Position numbers and translations under genes: made by a program
The notes under the pieces: generated by a model
Told to the model about the DNA's origin: nothing
The model's input: the letters and a program-made list of their open reading frames with translations, nothing else
Database searches by the model: none
Part shown: one piece after another, positions 1 through 35,455 of the stretch
Layout of the letters: every line of letters begins with the position of its first letter
Numbering within the stretch: position 1 is the first letter of the stretch
Origin: a virus
Lineage: Duplodnaviria > Heunggongvirae > Uroviricota > Caudoviricetes
DNA length: 64,000 nt
Strand: one strand, 5' to 3'
IMG/VR virus record: IMGVR_UViG_3300022660_000042

Positions 1-706
1 TAAAAATTGGTATATATTTTTTAAATCGCACATAAATTGCATTTTTTAAAACATGTAATTCATTTGCAAAATCTTCAAGTTTATAGTAATTTCCTGAATG
101 ATATTTGTCCCATAATTCCCTAGATAATTTCAAAGATTCATTATATCTTGTAATTGTAAATGTTGTTTTATGTTTTTTATGTTTTTTATGTTTTTTTACA
201 CCATATACAATTTTGTTTGATTCACCATGAAAAAGGTTTCGACCTTCAATCCAGAAATCTTCTAATGGTTTTTCTTTAAACTTCTTAGATTCTCCAGTAT
301 TACGATTTGTATACCATTTAGTTCCAAACTGTGAATTTTTATTACCTTGTTGATTCTTACTTGTTATTTTACTTATCGTTTTTGCAAACTCCATGCGTAA
401 TGCTTCATATGCACGAGAATTTATATAACGATGTTTTTCTTTAGTCGTTTGCCCTTGCATTCGCCAAAGTGCACATAACATTTTATTTCTTTCAATAGTT
501 CCTTTATCATACATTTTAACAAGTAACCAATGACAGATAAAATGTTCACGTGCAGTTAATCTAACAAGATTTTCATTATCGTTTGTACCTCCTAATGATT
601 TTGGTTGAATATGATGTTTTTCATAATAACCTACATATCTGTTCCCATTTTCTGTTTCCCTTTTTGCTTTTTCAATTATCTTATAATATATAGCTTTATA
701 ATTCAT
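1..706 (-). CDS. HNH homing endonuclease, runs off the window edge (not in ORF track)
   Basis: ATG at 706; MNYKAIYYKIIEKAK..YEKHHIQPKSLGG..NLVRLTAREHFICHWLL; close paralog of 19748..20518. Confidence 0.85.
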   Translation of the reverse strand, partial: MNYKAIYYKIIEKAKRETENGNRYVGYYEKHHIQPKSLGGTNDNENLVRLTAREHFICHWLLVKMYDKGTIERNKMLCALWRMQGQTTKEKHRYINSRAYEALRMEFAKTISKITSKNQQGNKNSQFGTKWYTNRNTGESKKFKEKPLEDFWIEGRNLFHGESNKIVYGVKKHKKHKKHKTTFTITRYNESLKLSRELWDKYHSGNYYKLEDFANELHVLKNAIYVRFKKYIPIF

Positions 707-764
707 ATATTATATATAATTTTTTCGTTTTCCGAACCTGTCAAATATAATTAGACAGACTTAG

Positions 765-835
765 CGGTCTCAACGGGTCACGATCCCGTACCTCCAGCGT
801 GACAAGCTGGTGTCCATCCATTAAACGATGAGACC
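765..835 (-). tRNA. tRNA-Asp(GTC)
   Basis: Cloverleaf GGTCTCA/TGAGACC, loop TT-GTC-AC; atypical T-loop ATCGTGA. Confidence 0.85.
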
Positions 836-871
836 AAAATAAAAAAGATTCCTGTGAGCGACACAGGAATC
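836..871 (-). terminator. Attenuator terminator 1
   Basis: GATTCCTGTG-loop-CACAGGAATC + T-tract, between leader ORF and tRNA-Asp. Confidence 0.85.
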
Positions 872-897
872 AATCTAAAACTTTTTACAGTTAAAAA

Positions 898-999
898 CTA
901 GATGACCCTGTGCTTGTGTCGATCCTTATCATGCTTACCGAAACCTCGTCCGTCGCGGCGAGTCTTGCAATCATGAGTGTCAACTACAAACTTAGTCAT
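898..999 (-). CDS. Putative attenuator leader peptide MTKFVVDTHDCKTRRDGRGFGKHDKDRHKHRVI (D/R/K/H/G-rich)
   Basis: AGGAAAAA SD before ATG 999; the track start at 1131 overlaps a tRNA; GCACAGGGTC at 904-913 can pair with the terminator 5' arm. Confidence 0.75.
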   Translation of the reverse strand: MTKFVVDTHDCKTRRDGRGFGKHDKDRHKHRVI

Positions 1000-1072
1000 T
1001 TCGTTTTTCCTTTCTATTATATATAAAAATTTTTTTCCTGTTTTCGCAAAATAAACAGCGAGCAGTAACTTG

Positions 1073-1146
1073 TGGAAATAAGAGTTGGACTCGAACCAAC
1101 GATCTTTGCATTGCTGCAACGCTCTAACCAACTGAGCTATCTCATT
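1073..1146 (-). tRNA. Atypical tRNA (Cys-like GCA, T73, encoded CCA) with a 4-6 nt anticodon loop
   Basis: Good acceptor, D and T arms; anticodon arm TTGCA-GCAA-TGCAA. Confidence 0.6.
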
Positions 1147-1193
1147 GATTATAGGAACCGCTTGTGCTGTTCTATTGTGTTTTAACGTTGTTA

Positions 1194-1222
1194 AATATAG
1201 TAAAGTTTTTTCCTTTTGTAAA
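1194..1222 (-). promoter_or_regulatory. sigma70-like promoter TTTACA-N17-TATATT
   Basis: Consensus repeated throughout the window. Confidence 0.75.
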
Positions 1223-1258
1223 CCCTATTTTTAAAAAATTTTTTAAGTTCTGTATTTC

Positions 1259-1576
1259 CTAAAGTTTATTTAATGCTATTTCAGTATCAAGTCCCATTAC
1301 ACGAAGCCTAATCTTGGCCGGATCTTTCAACTTCAGGATGTCTTCGATTATATCCAAACTTTTTGCTATGAAAATTGGCATACACCAGATTTGAGACTTC
1401 GATTTATAATCTTCATACAGAATTAACTGCCAGATAACGTTATCAGATGCCAATCCCGTTGCATAAATCCCATCGTTAATGTTTTTCGGATATAAGTATA
1501 AATCTCCAGACTCATTAATGATTCTCTGGAGAACTTCCATCTTGGCGAACGCACGTTTTACATTGTTTTTTGTCAT
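1259..1576 (-). CDS. hypothetical protein
   Basis: ORF track, tightly packed minus-strand run. Confidence 0.7.
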   Translation of the reverse strand: MTKNNVKRAFAKMEVLQRIINESGDLYLYPKNINDGIYATGLASDNVIWQLILYEDYKSKSQIWCMPIFIAKSLDIIEDILKLKDPAKIRLRVMGLDTEIALNKL

Positions 1577-1884
1577 AGCACCTTGTCCAGCATAATTTCC
1601 AGTTTCATATTTTCATATTTGGCCTTGAGACGGTCAAACGTTTTGCACTTGTGAATTTCTGGAATTAACTTTAACAATAAGTTCTTTTCTTCACTGTATT
1701 TAATTACCAAATCATTTCCAAGTTCATATTTATTGGTTACATCTTGAAACCGGATATAATCAGAGTAAACATGCATTTCAATATTATTAAACTTACGGAA
1801 TGTAGCATAGTTATGACGATAGTCAAGGGCAAAATTTTCCTTGGCCAATAACTTATCTACTTTTTCTTGAAAACGTGATAACAT
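1573..1884 (-). CDS. hypothetical protein
   Basis: ORF track; follows promoter at 1892-1920. Confidence 0.7.
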   Translation of the reverse strand: MLSRFQEKVDKLLAKENFALDYRHNYATFRKFNNIEMHVYSDYIRFQDVTNKYELGNDLVIKYSEEKNLLLKLIPEIHKCKTFDRLKAKYENMKLEIMLDKVL

Positions 1885-1891
1885 ATTTTAT

Positions 1892-1924
1892 AAAATAGAA
1901 AAAAGGTTGACTTTCGTCAACCCT
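1892..1924 (-). terminator. Terminator hairpin overlapping a promoter (TTGACG in the stem)
   Basis: GGTTGAC-GAAA-GTCAACC-T6; -35 to -10 spacing 17. Confidence 0.75.
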
Positions 1925-1946
1925 TTAATATTTCCAGGAATTAAAT

Positions 1947-2171
1947 TTAGATTTTCTCATTTTCTTTTTTAAGTGCATTTCCGAGTTTTTCGATGTCATT
2001 GACAAATAGCTGAACAATTTCATCTACAGTTCCAAGTGGAACCATGCCATTATCAGATTTCAACTTGAATAGCTTATCTTTCAGCTCATCTGACACAAAT
2101 TCGGTCCAGACGTGTTTTGGAAAATTTCCAATATTTTCTTCATTAGTTATATCTTCCAATACTTTGTTCAT
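1947..2171 (-). CDS. hypothetical protein
   Basis: ORF track. Confidence 0.65.
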   Translation of the reverse strand: MNKVLEDITNEENIGNFPKHVWTEFVSDELKDKLFKLKSDNGMVPLGTVDEIVQLFVNDIEKLGNALKKENEKI

Positions 2172-2422
2172 TATTTAATCTCTTTTACTTGAACCGTGGC
2201 ATCTATTTCACCAAGAAATAACTCATTCATTGATGCACTATAATATGACTTACTTTTTACACAGTAAGACATCTTACTCTTTGCTGAGCGTAAATCAGCA
2301 AAATGTGTAGCTTGGCTTAAATCAGTTACCCAACTAACATAACCCTTTTTAGAACCCCAATAATAGACTATACCATCAACAGTTCTACAAAGAATCCATG
2401 TTTTTAATTTCGCATTGAACAT
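2171..2422 (-). CDS. hypothetical protein
   Basis: ORF track. Confidence 0.65.
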   Translation of the reverse strand: MFNAKLKTWILCRTVDGIVYYWGSKKGYVSWVTDLSQATHFADLRSAKSKMSYCVKSKSYYSASMNELFLGEIDATVQVKEIK

Positions 2423-2425
2423 TAC

Positions 2426-2884
2426 TTACCATCCATTGGAATGCTTTATTTGCTCATAACGGTCCACAACAGCACTCGTCACTGCTCTTTGTGTACGTTC
2501 ATTTATACCGGATAGAGTCTTCGGTTCGACAATACTGTATTCTCTTGTAGTGTCATTATACCTAAGATTGAGACCCTTGAAAGTCAGGAACCAAGTATCG
2601 TTCGTAACCTCAACGTCGGCCATAGCAACAAGATCCGGGTCGTTAGAGGCCTCACAGAAGTCGAGACGTAAAACCTTGACCTTAATCTGGTCACTCATAG
2701 TTGCCTCCAACTTAGCCTTTGCTTTCTCGCCTTCCAGAGACGTACTGGTCCAGCCACCTTTGTCGTTCAAGTACATGACATTGACACCGGCTGTTGTACT
2801 GTTTGCAATACATGCTTCAAGGTCCTTGTCACCGATATATTCTTTTAACTCTGTGAGTTCATCAATTATTTTACTTATTTTCAT
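2426..2884 (-). CDS. Protein with a possible C-terminal SpoVG-like domain
   Basis: LVAMADVEV..LTFKGLNL..IVEP..INERTQRAVTSAVVDRY resembles the SpoVG pattern. Confidence 0.4.
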   Translation of the reverse strand: MKISKIIDELTELKEYIGDKDLEACIANSTTAGVNVMYLNDKGGWTSTSLEGEKAKAKLEATMSDQIKVKVLRLDFCEASNDPDLVAMADVEVTNDTWFLTFKGLNLRYNDTTREYSIVEPKTLSGINERTQRAVTSAVVDRYEQIKHSNGW

Positions 2885-3183
2885 AATGTATCTCCTTTAG
2901 AAGTTTCAACCATTTGTGCTCGCTTTATGCCAAGAAGCTCTCTATACATCTGAAGCTGGTTCAACTTAAGATTTCTGTTAATACAATCAGAAGAAAGGAC
3001 ATATTCTAGGTCCTTGATTTCATTCTCAAGCCAATGAATTTTCATTTCTTCTGTCTTCAATCTATTTGCATTCATGTCTAGGGTTTCTGTATCAGATTTC
3101 CCTTTTGTTAATTCATTCAAGTATATTTTTTTCATCATGTTATTTATCCTTATTATTGAAAATTCGTCATCATTAACCACCAA
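2881..3183 (-). CDS. hypothetical protein
   Basis: ORF track. Confidence 0.6.
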   Translation of the reverse strand: MVVNDDEFSIIRINNMMKKIYLNELTKGKSDTETLDMNANRLKTEEMKIHWLENEIKDLEYVLSSDCINRNLKLNQLQMYRELLGIKRAQMVETSKGDTL

Positions 3184-3457
3184 GCATCAAACATTCCAAC
3201 GACTTTATGCTAGCCTTTTCAGCATCGGTAAGAGGTTCAAAGTCCTCGTTAAAGTACCGCACTGCGTCACGGATTTTATCCTTGATGTTATCCAGTGCTA
3301 CTTTCCGTGGGTCAATCGGACTTGCCGTCTTATAGCTGATGTCAAGTCGGTCTGACCTATCTACAAGAGACAGTTCTGTAATGTCCATGTCGCCGAAGTG
3401 AGACTCCATTGTGGTGAGTTCATCTATGATGTTTTTCTTGAGTTTACTGATTTGCAT
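3173..3457 (-). CDS. hypothetical protein
   Basis: ORF track. Confidence 0.65.
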   Translation of the reverse strand: MQISKLKKNIIDELTTMESHFGDMDITELSLVDRSDRLDISYKTASPIDPRKVALDNIKDKIRDAVRYFNEDFEPLTDAEKASIKSLECLMLGG

Positions 3458-3626
3458 AATGTTTCTCCTTTGGAATTTTTACCCATTTACCTTTATGCTG
3501 GTCTTCCCAAGCATCCTCGCCAGCATCATAATCCTGCCATTTAAGACCTATATCTGCGGCTGCCTCTTTCATTTCTTGGATAAGGCTTTCCTGCTCTTCA
3601 AGTTTGTCGAGCACATCCTTACACAT
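3444..3626 (-). CDS. hypothetical protein
   Basis: ORF track. Confidence 0.55.
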   Translation of the reverse strand: MCKDVLDKLEEQESLIQEMKEAAADIGLKWQDYDAGEDAWEDQHKGKWVKIPKEKHYANQ

Positions 3627-3724
3627 TTCACGAAGGTTAGTTTGAAATGTGAAATATTGCTCATTTTCGCGTTTCTTTATTTCAACACGAAGCCCGCGCT
3701 TGATGTCATATCTATATGCATAAA

Positions 3725-4018
3725 TTAATCCTTTAACGTAAAGTCAATAATTAAACACAAAGGAATAAATGAAAGTAATCCTGATATAATTGAAAGTATT
3801 ATTAAGGTGACACTATTAATTCCACTTCCATCTATTGGATTAATAACTCCGATAAAAGCCAGGAATGCAATTAGCCAATTAAATCCAGTCCATATTGAGC
3901 ATAATATTATTGCAAATACAGCCGTAAATGGATCAGTATGCTCTGGATTACCACCTGCTCTTCTGTGTATCATTCTTCCAGTAACATTCATCTGACCCGG
4001 AACCCATGAACCTATCAT
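3725..4018 (-). CDS. hypothetical membrane protein
   Basis: Two hydrophobic segments. Confidence 0.65.
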   Translation of the reverse strand: MIGSWVPGQMNVTGRMIHRRAGGNPEHTDPFTAVFAIILCSIWTGFNWLIAFLAFIGVINPIDGSGINSVTLIILSIISGLLSFIPLCLIIDFTLKD

Positions 4019-4019
4019 T

Positions 4020-4574
4020 CTACTTTACCTCCCTCAATAATGCTTCAACCCGTTCCTTTACATCAGTCCACTTATTAGATATAGCAAGATAGTCCTTATT
4101 TTTCTCAGTAGCCAAATCGTTATGGTGCTGTAATCTTGCCATAGCACCATAGTAATTTTCAGCATACGTAGCTATTTGTCTGGTTTTCCGTAGATTGTCC
4201 TGTTTCATATTCCGTAACTGTTCATCTTGATACCTTATTACTTGCTTGTACGCTTCAGTATCATGAAAAAGGGAATTAATTATATCATTCTGTTCATCTG
4301 TTTTCGATTTATCTAAATTACTTTGTGCTTCTTTTGTATTCTCCATACAAAAAAGATAAGCAGTTTGTTCATGTATTTTAGCAAGTTTTTCAATACATAT
4401 TTCACGAGGATATTCATGTTCTTGAATATCTAAAGCCACCGCCTGTATTTTTTCAAGCACTTCTCTAAACTCGTCAAATGATAAATTAAGCGATACGTTA
4501 TCAAGCGGTTTCTTCATATAACTCCTTTTATCTGATAGAGCTATCCTTATATACGGATAAACTCTTTTTAACAT
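4020..4574 (-). CDS. hypothetical protein
   Basis: ORF track; promoter directly upstream. Confidence 0.7.
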   Translation of the reverse strand: MLKRVYPYIRIALSDKRSYMKKPLDNVSLNLSFDEFREVLEKIQAVALDIQEHEYPREICIEKLAKIHEQTAYLFCMENTKEAQSNLDKSKTDEQNDIINSLFHDTEAYKQVIRYQDEQLRNMKQDNLRKTRQIATYAENYYGAMARLQHHNDLATEKNKDYLAISNKWTDVKERVEALLREVK

Positions 4575-4675
4575 AATAATATAGCAAAAGGATTGACTTC
4601 TGTCAACCCTTTAATATTATTTTCTGAAAATTAAACTGACTCAAATAAAAAATCAGTAACCAACTCATATTTTTC

Positions 4676-5284
4676 TTAATTTTTCTCAGAACGATCACGA
4701 ATAGCGACAAAGAGGTCGTCACAGTCTTTTTGGAACTGGTCTAAATCAGTCGGAACGACTTTGCGGTTGAGCCATTCTTCCTTCGACTTAATGCCGTCGA
4801 TATTGAAGAAAGTGTCTTCTTTTAGAGTCTTGGCGATGATTCGAGAGTGTGTGATGACGAGGAGGCCATAAGACTTTTTGAGTACTTCATCCTTAACAGA
4901 GTTGATGTAGTTAGCAACTGCGAGCTGGAGCTCTTCTCCCATGCCGAGCTCTACTTCATCGAGAACAATGAAGCGTTCTTCATGGTTAATAATCGACTTG
5001 AGCAAATGGACAGTGTTGTCTCCCGTAGAAGTCCATTCAGAGTCACGAAGGAAGTTGATTCCTATTGTGCTGCTGAGTCCAGCACGTGACATGAAGGACA
5101 GAGAGCTGACCAGACGTTCTGGGCTGTCTTTTCCGAGCTTCTTTTGAATTCGTGTCGGAAGAATCTTACGAATTACAGACTTTCCAGCGCCATTCGACCC
5201 AGTGAGAATGGTAAGTTTTCCAAGTTCGATTGAGTCAGCAATCTCAATCAGTCGGTCAATGTGCTTATTCCATTCTTTTTTCAT
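4676..5284 (-). CDS. ABC/AAA-type P-loop ATPase
   Basis: Walker A GSNGAGKS, Walker B FIVLDEVE; start moved to MKKEW (the track start overlaps tRNAs). Confidence 0.8.
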   Translation of the reverse strand: MKKEWNKHIDRLIEIADSIELGKLTILTGSNGAGKSVIRKILPTRIQKKLGKDSPERLVSSLSFMSRAGLSSTIGINFLRDSEWTSTGDNTVHLLKSIINHEERFIVLDEVELGMGEELQLAVANYINSVKDEVLKKSYGLLVITHSRIIAKTLKEDTFFNIDGIKSKEEWLNRKVVPTDLDQFQKDCDDLFVAIRDRSEKN

Positions 5285-5348
5285 TGTTATTTTTCCTTTT
5301 TCTTTAAATATAAAAAAAGGATTGACTTTCGTCAACCCTTTAATATAG

Positions 5349-5423
5349 TGGAGGCGATTGGAATTGAACCAATCAAGAGAGGAACATTCTGTGCAAAAGT
5401 TGCGGAAAGTAACCTTTGCCCCC
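5349..5423 (-). ncRNA. tRNA-Ala/tmRNA-like acceptor-T minihelix carrying the repeated structured module
   Basis: GGGGGC/GCCTCC with G3:U70 and A73, T arm ATTGG-TTCAATT-CCAAT; no D or anticodon arm. Confidence 0.7.
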
Positions 5424-5428
5424 ATTAG

Positions 5429-5502
5429 TGGATCCAGTGGTATTCGAAACCACAACCTCCCGCTTGCAGGGCGGGTGCTCTGCCAAATTGAGCTATGAAC
5501 CC
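5429..5502 (-). tRNA. tRNA-Ala(TGC)
   Basis: Cloverleaf, G3:U70. Confidence 0.9.
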
Positions 5503-5509
5503 ATGTTAG

Positions 5510-5582
5510 TAGCGGCGTCGGGAATCGAACCCGAATGCCAGGATTGAAGGTCCCGTGAACTAAGCCGTTATTCTACGTCGCC
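5510..5582 (-). tRNA. tRNA-Glu(TTC)
   Basis: Cloverleaf, loop CC-TTC-AA. Confidence 0.85.
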
Positions 5583-5592
5583 ATAATTTTAG

Positions 5593-5665
5593 TAGTCCTA
5601 TACAGATTCGAACTGTAGTAACTTGGCTGAGAACCAAGTGGCCTTGACCGCTAGCCGATAGAACC
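5593..5665 (-). tRNA. tRNA-Glu(CTC)
   Basis: Cloverleaf, loop TT-CTC-AG. Confidence 0.85.
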
Positions 5666-5672
5666 ATATTAG

Positions 5673-5747
5673 TGCCACCGACAGGGGTCGAACCTGTGAC
5701 GCGAAGATCTTCGGTCTTCCGCTCTACCAAAACTGAGCTACAGTGGC
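5673..5747 (-). tRNA. tRNA-Phe(GAA)
   Basis: Cloverleaf. Confidence 0.9.
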
Positions 5748-5759
5748 ATATATTTTTTA

Positions 5760-5834
5760 TGGACCGTAGGAGGCTCGAACTCCTGACCCCCAGAATGCAA
5801 ATCTGGTGCTCTACCAAAACTGAGCTAACAGCCC
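5760..5834 (-). tRNA. tRNA-Ala(TGC)
   Basis: Cloverleaf, G3:U70. Confidence 0.9.
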
Positions 5835-5884
5835 GAAAATAAAACTGACCTTACTCATCTCAACGCGTACTATTGACTTTCGGT

Positions 5885-5957
5885 AAGCGCATACGGGATT
5901 CGAACCCGTGACCAGCGGCCTTCACACCGCCTGTTCTACCGCCGAACAAAATGCGTT
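5885..5957 (-). tRNA. Degenerate tRNA (His GTG or Phe GAA ambiguous)
   Basis: Good T and D arms; anticodon arm GCGG-TGTGAAGG-CCGC is irregular. Confidence 0.5.
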
Positions 5958-5968
5958 ATCAGTTTTAG

Positions 5969-6042
5969 TGGACACATATGGGATTCGAACCCATGACGTT
6001 TTCCCTGCCAGGGAAACATTCTACCAACTGAATTAATGGCCC
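5969..6042 (-). tRNA. tRNA-Ala(GGC)
   Basis: G3:U70; 1-nt bulge in acceptor; near duplicate of 6137..6210. Confidence 0.85.
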
Positions 6043-6053
6043 ATGATTTTTAG

Positions 6054-6127
6054 TAGCGCTGTCGGGACTCGAACCCGAATTTCCGACTTGAAAGGCCGGT
6101 GAACTGAACCAGTTATTCGACAGCGCC
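6054..6127 (-). tRNA. tRNA-Glu(TTC)
   Basis: Cloverleaf. Confidence 0.9.
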
Positions 6128-6136
6128 GAAATTTAG

Positions 6137-6210
6137 TGGACACATATGGGATTCGAACCCATGACGTTCTGCGTGCAAAGCAGACATTCTACCAACTGAA
6201 TTAATGGCCC
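6137..6210 (-). tRNA. tRNA-Ala(TGC)
   Basis: G3:U70; same body as 5969..6042 with a different anticodon arm. Confidence 0.85.
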
Positions 6211-6219
6211 AAATGTTAG

Positions 6220-6292
6220 TACTCCGTCCCGGATTCGAACCGGGGTTATCCGATAGAAAGTCGGATGGCTTAAACCGCTGGCCGAACGGAGC
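6220..6292 (-). tRNA. tRNA-Glu(TTC)
   Basis: Cloverleaf. Confidence 0.9.
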
Positions 6293-6303
6293 ATATTTTG
6301 TAG

Positions 6304-6377
6304 TGCCAAGTTCCGGAGTCGAACCGGATTTCTGGGATTTTCAGTCCCGTCCATTCCCACGATTGGATGCCATGGCA
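6304..6377 (-). tRNA. tRNA-Phe(GAA), atypical D arm
   Basis: Loop CT-GAA-AA; mismatches in acceptor. Confidence 0.7.
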
Positions 6378-6411
6378 TAAAAGAAAAGTTCCTGTGCTTG
6401 TGCACAGGAAC
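6378..6411 (-). terminator. Attenuator terminator 2
   Basis: GTTCCTGTGC-ACAA-GCACAGGAAC + TTTTCTTTT. Confidence 0.9.
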
Positions 6412-6436
6412 CGTTTTTAAAACTCTAATCGGTTAA

Positions 6437-6550
6437 CTACCTGATCCTATGCACTGTATTTGAATCAAATGCTTCAAACGCTGCAGCTGCAAATTCAGCT
6501 GCGGCACGTTCTGCTGCAAAAAATTCATGTTCAAATACGTTCATAGTCAT
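6437..6550 (-). CDS. Putative attenuator leader peptide MTMNVFEHEFFAAERAAAEFAAAAFEAFDSNTVHRIR
   Basis: 10 Ala, 6 Phe, 5 Glu; precedes the Ala/Glu/Phe tRNA cluster; GTGCATAGGATC (6443-6454) is complementary to the terminator 5' arm. Confidence 0.9.
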   Translation of the reverse strand: MTMNVFEHEFFAAERAAAEFAAAAFEAFDSNTVHRIR

Positions 6551-6734: not shown

Positions 6735-6846
6735 TGGGGAAGGCAGGATTCGAACCTACGACACACGCCTTGGAATGGAAATAGGAACGTTATATGCATT
6801 TCTACGAAACGTAAATACCGTTGCTCTACCACTGAGCTACTTCCCC
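6735..6846 (-). tRNA. tRNA-like gene with a 40-nt structured insertion; spliced form would read ACGCC-ATTCCAA-GGCGT (TCC)
   Basis: Perfect acceptor, D and T arms; the insert contains the repeated module. Confidence 0.7.
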
Positions 6847-6976: not shown

Positions 6977-7091
6977 CCGGCGAGACTGGATTCGAACCAA
7001 TAACCCAAAGTACCCTTTAGATAGGAAGCATTGGTGCTGAAAGCGAATACTAAATCTTAAACTTTTGCTCTACCGATTGAGCTACTCGCCG
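6977..7091 (-). tRNA. tRNA-like gene with a 49-nt anticodon loop containing the module; anticodon unresolved
   Basis: CGGCGAG/CTCGCCG acceptor, AAAGT/ACTTT anticodon stem. Confidence 0.7.
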
Positions 7092-8551: not shown

Positions 8552-8587
8552 ATAAAAATTAAAAGGTTCCTGTTGTGCACAGGAACC
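8552..8587 (-). terminator. Attenuator terminator 3 (before alaS)
   Basis: GGTTCCTGT-GCACA-ACAGGAACC + TTTTAATTTTT. Confidence 0.85.
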
Positions 8588-8622
8588 AAAGTTTAGTTAA
8601 TGAATATACCCATACACATATA

Positions 8623-8682
8623 TTATGTCATAATATATGCGGCTGCTGCGAAAATGCGAGTATTTAATATATTCATCGTCAT
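8623..8682 (-). CDS. Putative alaS leader peptide MTMNILNTRIFAAAAYIMT (not in ORF track)
   Basis: Four tandem Ala codons GCA GCA GCC GCA; lies between a TATATA promoter and the terminator. Confidence 0.8.
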   Translation of the reverse strand: MTMNILNTRIFAAAAYIMT

Positions 8683-14930: not shown

Positions 14931-15043
14931 TCGGAGAGGCACGGCTCGAACGTGCGACCTGCGGGTTATAAGCCATTAATAGGAACAACCTGTGCCATGA
15001 GCGGGTAGTAAAGTACGCTGCTCTACCACTGAGCTACTCTCCA
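14931..15043 (-). tRNA. tRNA with a 41-nt structured insertion; spliced form GCGGG-CTTATAA-CCCGC = tRNA-Ile(TAT)
   Basis: Canonical acceptor, D and T arms; insert lies between nt 29 and 30. Confidence 0.75.
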
Positions 15044-35154: not shown

Positions 35155-35455
35155 GTTGAACGGAGAGATCTAGCCTAGCAGGAATCACTAGACTAAACAC
35201 AGCTACTCTACTTTTGGCATAAAGTTTCGCGTGTCAATCTGGGGGACTTATGAACACTCTTACTGGTCGGTCATCCTGTACTCAGGCTACATAGTGTTCA
35301 GCCATGGCGGCAAGTGTATAGTTTGCTAAGCTATACTCGATAATCGAATCGCCTTTAACGTATACTTCCGATTTCAAAGTATACAGCGGCTTAGCCTCTA
35401 CCGATAATACCATTGGATTGGATTTCGTTCCGAGGACTAAGGCTCGAATGTCAGG
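35155..35455 (-). ncRNA. Candidate large structured ncRNA
   Basis: About 300 nt without ORF, TATATT at its 5' end, many hairpins. Confidence 0.5.

Follow-up and report, generated by a model that had tools for sequence, protein, structure and literature searches.

Genomic Context and Organization of the Locus

The locus lies near the beginning of a 64,000-nucleotide stretch of phage DNA (the window), which is the minus strand of G000:C1:92026-156025 in a 411,059-bp virus record from IMG/VR (98% complete according to CheckV, 38% GC). Genome positions are obtained as 156026 minus the window position, and the minus strand of the window is the plus strand of the genome; L001 denotes genome positions 154700-158700. 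The genome carries a T4-type major capsid gene (Gp23, PF07068, E 4.9e-70), and its source is a T4-like phage of ruminant guts. Megablast of window positions 1-6500 against GenBank phages gave no match, so that there is no annotated relative. The genome contains 48 tRNA genes according to Aragorn and 57 Infernal matches, 53 of them above the cut-off. When Aragorn was run with introns and a lowered threshold it returned about 75 spurious calls, with conflicting anticodons for the odd tRNAs, and the latter were therefore read from the Infernal alignments.

On the minus strand of the window, a putative promoter, a tRNA-like gene, a short leader open reading frame (ORF) with its ribosome-binding site and start codon, an intrinsic terminator, a tRNA-Asp gene and an HNH homing endonuclease gene follow one another (Table 1).

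Table 1. Positions of the leader unit, its operon and further elements of the genome (window positions unless stated otherwise)
Feature	Position	Strand	Basis and remarks
Putative sigma-70-like promoter, TTTACA-17-TATATT	1194..1222	(-)	Consensus scan
tRNA-like gene, 4-nt anticodon loop (GCAA)	1073..1146	(-)	Aragorn "tRNA-??? (ca)"; Infernal 56.6 bits
TTATATATAATA box	1015..1026	(-)	Common to all six leaders and both HNH cassettes
Shine-Dalgarno sequence AAGGA, 8 nt 5' of the ATG	1008..1012	(-)	Sequence reading; invariant in orthologous units
Leader ORF, 33 codons + TAG	898..999	(-)	Reads MTKFVVDTHDCKTRRDGRGFGKHDKDRHKHRVI*
Segment 2, GCACAGGGTCAT (codons 29-33), antiterminator 5' strand	902..913	(-)
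Intrinsic terminator hairpin, 10 bp, 5-nt loop	847..871	(-)	Pattern scan and folding
Segment 3, terminator 5' arm, GATTCCTGTG	871-862	(-)	Followed by loop tcgct
Segment 4, terminator 3' arm, CACAGGAATC	856-847	(-)
Terminator T-run TTTTTTATTTT (T6AT4)	836..846	(-)	Adjoins tRNA-Asp
tRNA-Asp(GTC), first operon gene	764..835	(-)	Aragorn; Infernal 50.4 bits
HNH homing endonuclease ORF, 255 aa	1..706, ends 61 nt beyond position 1 (genome 155320-156087)	(-)
Arg(ACG)-like tRNA, off window, between Asp and Lys	genome 156174-156253 (L001:1475-1554)		Infernal 33.6 bits (Rfam cut-off 29)
Seventh unit, Ala-rich leader MTMNILNTRIFAAAAYIMT*, directly 5' of the phage alaS start	8552-8682	(-)
cow-rumen-2 RNA	35239-35342	(-)	94.5 bits
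Phage-encoded tmRNA, tag ANTYAMAA	38448-38804	(-)

The putative promoter is part of a longer box, GGGGTTTACA-N17-TATATT, which is present upstream of every tRNA cluster and of the other leaders. Between promoter and leader lies the tRNA-like gene, whose anticodon loop has four bases where seven are usual; it is also kept in the relatives L002, L004 and L005, and the 5' end of the leader RNA might be processed there. ATATATAATA occurs in ten copies in the genome, every one on the transcribed strand. The TTATATATAATA box, which is invariant in the orthologues, is possibly a second, late-type promoter. Contigs from RNA libraries (four runs from three studies, one labelled sheep gut) match the locus at 90-99% and span it from the tRNA-like gene through leader and terminator to tRNA-Asp; as assembled contigs they cannot display RNA ends or levels and may stem from DNA carry-over, and they therefore speak neither for nor against attenuation.

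The tRNA Operon and Its Continuation Beyond the Window

The tRNA-Asp gene, which the first-pass annotation had placed after the leader, starts at the base directly after the T-run, and both Aragorn and Infernal recover it (835-764). With no more than this gene and the start of the HNH gene in view, that annotation had predicted from the composition of the leader that the operon beyond the HNH gene would encode His, Arg, Lys and/or Gly tRNAs. The sequence before position 1 corresponds to genome positions above 156025, because the window is the minus strand of its genome interval, and it was searched with Aragorn and Infernal. Past the HNH gene it contains Asp(GTC) at genome position 156091, Lys(CTT) at 156381 and 156567, Gly(GCC) at 156784 and 156864, Gly(TCC) at 156947 and His(GTG) at 157035, in addition to the Arg(ACG)-like gene. 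The prediction thus came true with canonical genes for His, Lys and Gly and a non-canonical one for Arg, and a cluster devoid of these four kinds of tRNA was not what lay there. All seven canonical tRNAs past the HNH gene fall into the set Asp, Arg, Lys, Gly and His, for which the chance is 5.7e-7 in a random draw of seven from the other 47 tRNA genes of the genome. The operon accordingly reads Asp, Asp, Arg(ACG), Lys(CTT) twice, three Gly and His, i.e., nine tRNA genes with the HNH gene inserted. A scan of the minus strand from the attenuator to the end of tRNA-His revealed no further terminator-like sites, and a new promoter-like site follows 3' of tRNA-His.

In the Arg(ACG)-like tRNA, the 5-bp anticodon stem is perfect and the loop reads CUACGAA, but the D arm is truncated and the variable region is long (20 nt); this aberrant tRNA may not function in this phage. 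A canonical tRNA-Arg(ACG) stands directly after the second Asp gene in four relatives (L014, L017, L018 and L020), and the operon content of Asp, Arg, Lys, Gly and His is conserved across the relatives. A second weak tRNA-like stretch of 25 bits is found at genome 156464-156554. The spacer between Lys and Gly (about 143 nt, L001:1942-2084) has a near-constant length in L002, L016, L017, L019 and L024 and measures 190 nt in L014; the version in this genome folds at -31.8 kcal/mol. A conserved small RNA was considered for this spacer and rejected, as the sequences of relatives with similar length are not homologous between sub-lineages.

The HNH gene, which lies between the two Asp tRNA genes of the operon, matches the homing endonuclease family phrog_655 (E 2e-38); the Pfam HNH domain scores 19.7 bits, below the cut-off. 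It is absent from this position in all ten relatives, where the two Asp genes are separated by 63-102 nt, and it is for this reason regarded as a mobile insertion into one operon. The cassette brings its own TATATATAATA box and its own promoter-like site, TTGACA-17-AATTAT with a perfect TTGACA; in this particular genome, transcription of the distal tRNAs may start from this site and so bypass the attenuator. Relatives without the cassette are therefore also without the internal promoter. A second, paralogous HNH gene lies inside a tRNA operon after Asn (window about 20518 downward, minus strand), and both HNH genes share an upstream sequence of the form GTTCGG-AAA...TTATATATAATATATG.

A Leader ORF Matched to the Codons of Its Operon

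The leader was described in the first pass as 33 amino acids long with five Asp, five Arg, five Lys, four His and three Gly residues, and precisely this ORF is read from window 999-898 on the minus strand; these five amino acids make up 22 of its 33 residues. Codons cognate to the downstream tRNAs (Asp GAY, Arg CGH, Lys AAG, His CAY, Gly GGN) account for 20 of the 24 codons from 7 to 30, and for 15 of the 19 from 7 to 25. Under plain wobble rules, the anticodons of the operon can decode 21 of the 32 codons after the ATG, compared with a background of 21% in long ORFs (binomial P 6e-8), and the same count was reached in only 17 of 200,000 random coding windows; the cognate codons are clearly over-represented. 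The match extends to synonymous codons: all five Lys codons are AAG, which fits the anticodon CTT, and four of the five Arg codons are CGC or CGA, which fit ACG, the remaining one being an AGG (codon 31) that Arg(ACG) does not read. The non-cognate codons are found at the start of the ORF and among the last three codons, which belong to the RNA switch described below.

Terminator and Candidate Antiterminator

An intrinsic terminator (871-836) stands between the leader and the first tRNA gene. Its hairpin starts 26 nt past the leader stop codon and folds at -14.5 kcal/mol. The 5' arm of this hairpin is complementary to the end of the ORF: GCACAGGGTC and GATTCCTGTG can form six Watson-Crick pairs and one G-U pair around a one-base bulge, with a duplex energy of -11.1 kcal/mol. 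Shuffling the ORF end reached this energy in 9 of 2000 trials, and random 24-mers from the genome did so in 19 of 5000. The pairing near the leader stop that had been noticed in the first pass is hence real, although it is imperfect in the G-U pair and the bulge. In the predicted switch, GCACAGGG pairs with UCCUGUGU. Segment 2, which would supply the 5' strand, ends 4 nt 5' of the leader stop codon, and GCACAGGGTCAT also pairs with the start of the ORF in the untranslated fold.

When the nascent RNA was folded up to the terminator loop, the helix between ORF end and terminator 5' arm was the minimum-energy structure in this unit and in four of five sister units. The predicted antiterminator (about -18 kcal/mol) compares with about -20 kcal/mol for the terminator together with a spacer hairpin, and the two use the terminator 5' arm in a mutually exclusive manner in silico. 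With a simulated ribosome footprint, a stall at codon 25 or earlier keeps the antiterminator, which is lost when the ribosome has advanced to codon 27 or beyond, the stop codon included. The untranslated leader is predicted to fold on itself (AUGACU/GGUCAU and GUUUGU/ACAAGC), after which the terminator forms, and folding of the whole unit against shuffled sequences gave z = -4.6. In a test fixed at 24 nt, the ORF ends of leaders A and F were only weakly complementary to their terminator arms; in F, the candidate segment was cut by the limits of the tested stretch. No Rfam cis-regulatory leader family or T-box was matched by cmscan, run on L001 at E<=1 and on the window at the gathering score; the hits were tRNA, tmRNA and weak chance matches.

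Conservation of the Unit in Relatives

Two pattern scans of IMG/VR recovered 12 loci with an orthologous unit, representing 11 distinct sequences with the window included. In all 11 the leader ORF has 33 codons, with TAG (9), TGA (1) or TAA (1) as the stop codon. Third codon positions vary in 12 of the 33 codons, against 6 each for the first and second positions; of the 26 spacer columns 17 vary, whereas segments 2 and 3 hardly change, the two columns of segment 2 that change doing so in a single sequence. Several of the amino acid replacements are radical and yet stay within the cognate set (H9K, K12D, D16G, H30R), some of them needing two base changes, and the non-cognate positions 8 and 11 drift between T, I and M and between C, F and V, respectively. 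Exceptions outside the cognate set are H28Y and K29L in some relatives, and codon 29 is AGA (K29R) in six orthologues, a codon unread by Arg(ACG). According to the footprint model, H28Y and K29R(AGA)/L lie where a stall would no longer help.

The antiterminator is the predicted minimum-energy fold in all 11 orthologues (-17.4 to -20.3 kcal/mol). Three of three substitutions in the 3' arm of the terminator preserve pairing through G-U, and the predicted leader hairpin between ORF start and ORF end (the 1:2 type) is likewise kept through one-sided wobble changes only. Within the orthologue alignment no pair has changed on both sides, and only one-sided, wobble-compatible changes are seen; double compensation is lacking because the divergence of the orthologues is too low (89% mean column identity), and covariation support comes from the paralogues only, as the core of the antiterminator is almost invariant.

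Parallel Units in the Same Genome

Every large tRNA cluster of the genome shows the same succession of a GGGGTTTACA-N17-TATATT box, a TTATATATAATA box, a Shine-Dalgarno sequence, a short ORF, a hairpin with T-run, and the tRNA genes. The leader MLRFVKQVKQIRKQQ... precedes a Gln/Lys(TTT)/Arg(TCT)/Gln cluster, MTFTMNTNTVNPNNP... an Asn/Pro/Thr/Met/Val cluster, MTMNVFEHEFFAAERAAAEFAAAAFEAF... an Ala/Glu/Phe cluster, and MKTLSLTLLLLSSLLLSWLL... a Trp/Leu/Ser(GCT) cluster, and a frame rich in Tyr, Cys, Ser and Met precedes a Tyr/Cys/Met/Ser(NGA) cluster. When leader codons were set against cluster anticodons in a six-by-six matrix, the true assignment came first among all 720 permutations. Synonymous codons also track the clusters, with the split between Lys AAA and AAG, Ser AGY and UCN, and Arg AGR and CGH having a joint probability of about 1e-7. 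The Leu unit has GGTTCCCA as its terminator stem and the Tyr unit GGCGTCAC; across the paralogues, the ends of the ORFs co-vary with these differing stems (TGGGAAC and GTGAC). A seventh unit with an Ala-rich leader stands in front of the phage alaS gene (Table 1); its hairpin has the form GGTTCCTGT-gcaca-ACAGGAACC and is followed by a T-run.

Proposed Mechanism and Alternative Explanations

Taken together, the unit is probably a ribosome-mediated leader-peptide transcription attenuator of the trp/his/thr type that has a tRNA operon as its cargo, a reading supported, at the level of sequence and predicted folds, by structure, by conservation and by the five sister units. Transcription would start upstream, and a ribosome would load on the 33-codon leader. 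With ample aminoacyl-tRNAs for GAY, CGH, AAG, CAY and GGN, the ribosome would reach the stop codon and cover GCACAGGGTCAT, upon which the terminator would form and RNA polymerase would halt at the T-run just 5' of tRNA-Asp. If any of the cognate tRNAs were scarce, the ribosome would stall within codons 7-25 and leave GCACAGGGTCAT free to pair with the terminator 5' arm (about -18 kcal/mol), allowing readthrough into the tRNA genes. In RNA without a ribosome, the leader would fold on itself (AUGACU/GGUCAU etc.) and the terminator would form. The predicted outcome is a negative feedback on the supply of exactly those tRNAs that are encoded downstream. The distal genes of this phage may additionally have an unregulated promoter, contributed by the HNH cassette that follows the first tRNA-Asp.

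Other explanations would leave the leader with a different role. Its translation could matter while the output reflects general translation capacity or the stage of infection, or else the processing, stability or Rho-type polarity of the precursor. This would agree with an untranslated leader that forms a long hairpin burying its own start codon, with the tRNA-like element preceding the leader, with the presence of a phage-encoded tmRNA and with the closeness of the two fold energies (-18 and -20 kcal/mol), but a general sensor has no need of six leaders whose codons, down to the synonymous choice, are those of their respective clusters, nor does it account for a canonical terminator whose T-run adjoins the first tRNA; we regard it as improbable. 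An even smaller probability is given to a hairpin that merely ends a short upstream transcript comprising the promoter region and the tRNA-like RNA, with the ORF being a chance frame and the operon transcribed from elsewhere. Short ORFs are indeed numerous in AT-rich phage DNA, and the HNH cassette places a promoter-like site after tRNA-Asp; against this stand the composition match (P 6e-8), the fulfilled off-window prediction (~6e-7), an ORF length maintained with three different stop codons, the six parallel units in the genome, the lack of space for a promoter between T-run and tRNA-Asp, and the relatives that are without the HNH cassette and hence without the internal promoter.

A functional small basic peptide as the product of the ORF, with an incidental match to the tRNAs, is just as hard to credit. 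The core TRRDGRGFGKHDKDR is invariant in the 11 orthologues, as would be expected of such a peptide, yet it is also constrained by the leader hairpin; charge-reversing or radical replacements (K12D, D16G, H9K, H30R) are tolerated if the new codon is cognate, and the paralogous leaders differ wholly in composition, each fitting its own tRNAs. Lowest in probability is a T-box-like sensing of uncharged tRNA by the leader RNA, independent of translation. T-boxes likewise tie tRNA status to a switch between terminator and antiterminator, but the locus has no match to a T-box or another Rfam cis-regulatory family at E<=1, a single RNA would need five specifiers, and the Shine-Dalgarno sequence, the ATG, the conserved frame and the varying stop codons point to translation.

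More tentatively, since we hold it to be possible and yet on balance doubtful, the six units could form a codon-resolved feedback network, in which each block of tRNAs is induced only when its own codons slow down ribosomes, and the attenuators could serve as counter-defence sensors, with the Asp/Arg/Lys/His/Gly unit answering attacks on tRNA-Lys and tRNA-Arg. Such a network would replace exactly those host tRNAs that are decayed or cut during infection, for example by anticodon nucleases acting on tRNA-Lys or tRNA-Arg.

Relation to Known Attenuators

Leader-peptide attenuation is the textbook control of amino acid biosynthesis and of a few aminoacyl-tRNA synthetase genes, and well-known enterobacterial examples are trpL, hisL, pheL and leuL. 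The phage unit resembles these in having a short ORF with many regulatory codons followed by an intrinsic terminator, a predicted antiterminator between the ORF end and the terminator 5' arm, several amino acids per leader and, possibly, a self-pairing untranslated leader that would lead to termination. Multivalent leaders are represented by thrL (Thr and Ile) and by ilvL and ivbL (Ile, Leu and Val), and the 1:2 / 2:3 / 3:4 scheme of trp and his attenuation, which the phage unit would follow, belongs to a framework that has been modelled (PMC1183508). The phage leader, in contrast, would sense five amino acids together; it belongs to a viral genome that holds six or seven such units, among which most of the amino acids are divided, and it has no sequence similarity to the Rfam leader families (His_leader, Thr_leader, Trp_leader, Leu_leader etc.). 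Its cargo consists of tRNA genes, and the loop would therefore act on the supply of tRNA itself.

For the translation apparatus, the pheST genes of Escherichia coli, which encode an aminoacyl-tRNA synthetase, are controlled by the pheM leader attenuator. A synthetase gene such as alaS is a classical kind of attenuation target, and the phage has the same module 5' of its alaS gene. A His-leader is also found upstream of hisS paralogues in bacilli (PMC2965389). Unlike the pheST and hisS attenuators, which gate a protein gene for one amino acid, the unit described here would gate a polycistronic tRNA precursor for five. T-box riboswitches similarly sense tRNA status through a terminator/antiterminator switch, and none was detected at the phage locus. 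They bind uncharged tRNA directly, independent of translation, and are recognized by a conserved Stem I and T-box sequence.

The tRNA cluster of phage T4 is transcribed as polycistronic precursors and is sometimes interrupted by homing endonuclease genes. The clustered tRNA genes of the present phage, which has a Gp23 capsid, resemble it in this respect, but here every large cluster has a leader-peptide unit; as far as we know, the T4 cluster has not been reported to have a leader peptide or attenuator. A full-text search of a library holding few subscription journals yielded no account of tRNA genes under leader-peptide attenuation. Downstream of the phage leader, tRNA genes and an HNH gene take the place of biosynthetic enzymes or a synthetase, and the novelty lies in this cargo, which is outside the classical targets of biosynthetic operons and synthetase genes (PMC1183508; PMC2965389). 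The proposed unit would apply a classical mechanism to regulated genes of a new class, in a new setting, that of a virus, and for five amino acids at once. The tRNA genes themselves appear to be subject to this logic here, each block of tRNAs having its own sensor, with a match that reaches synonymous codons.

If this holds true, giant phages would regulate large sets of tRNAs through feedback from decoding speed instead of expressing them constitutively, and a rule that uses only sequence would predict the tRNAs that lie behind a leader, as in the blind prediction across the window border. The inducing signal could be read from the attenuator, so that the question why phages carry tRNAs becomes testable, with compensation of codon usage and replacement of damaged host tRNAs as the two options. 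The units would also provide ready-made, orthogonal, codon-specific sensors for synthetic biology.

Unusual Leaders and tRNA Genes

The leader of the Tyr/Tyr/Cys/Met/Ser(UCN) cluster (G000:C1:212299-212394, outside the window) is interrupted in frame by a TAA that follows codon 8 (MTHQLYTY*). Past this TAA the frame continues as CSSICGCSTSSIYGMYIIKTGG*, whose abundant residues are precisely Cys, Ser(UCN), Tyr and Met; the antiterminator segment is found at the end of the extended frame, and the short frame of eight codons also occurs in L003 (L003:9138 onward). The TAA could be read through, it could divide a leader made of two parts, or it could be a nonsense codon that is conserved. A UAA-suppressor tRNA, suggested by an Aragorn call of "tRNA-Stop(tta)" at genome 127795-127884, was not supported as an explanation and was dropped because the loop in the Infernal alignment is CUUUUAA (UUU, Lys-like) and the acceptor stem is poor.

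Three tRNA genes of 112-115 nt were detected by Infernal only (window 6735-6846, 6977-7091 and 14931-15043, minus strand). They carry insertions of 24-41 nt in or near the anticodon arm, two of which contain GTTCCTAT, a motif that is also present in spacers beside other tRNAs, e.g., at genome 136466, 138472 and 212965.
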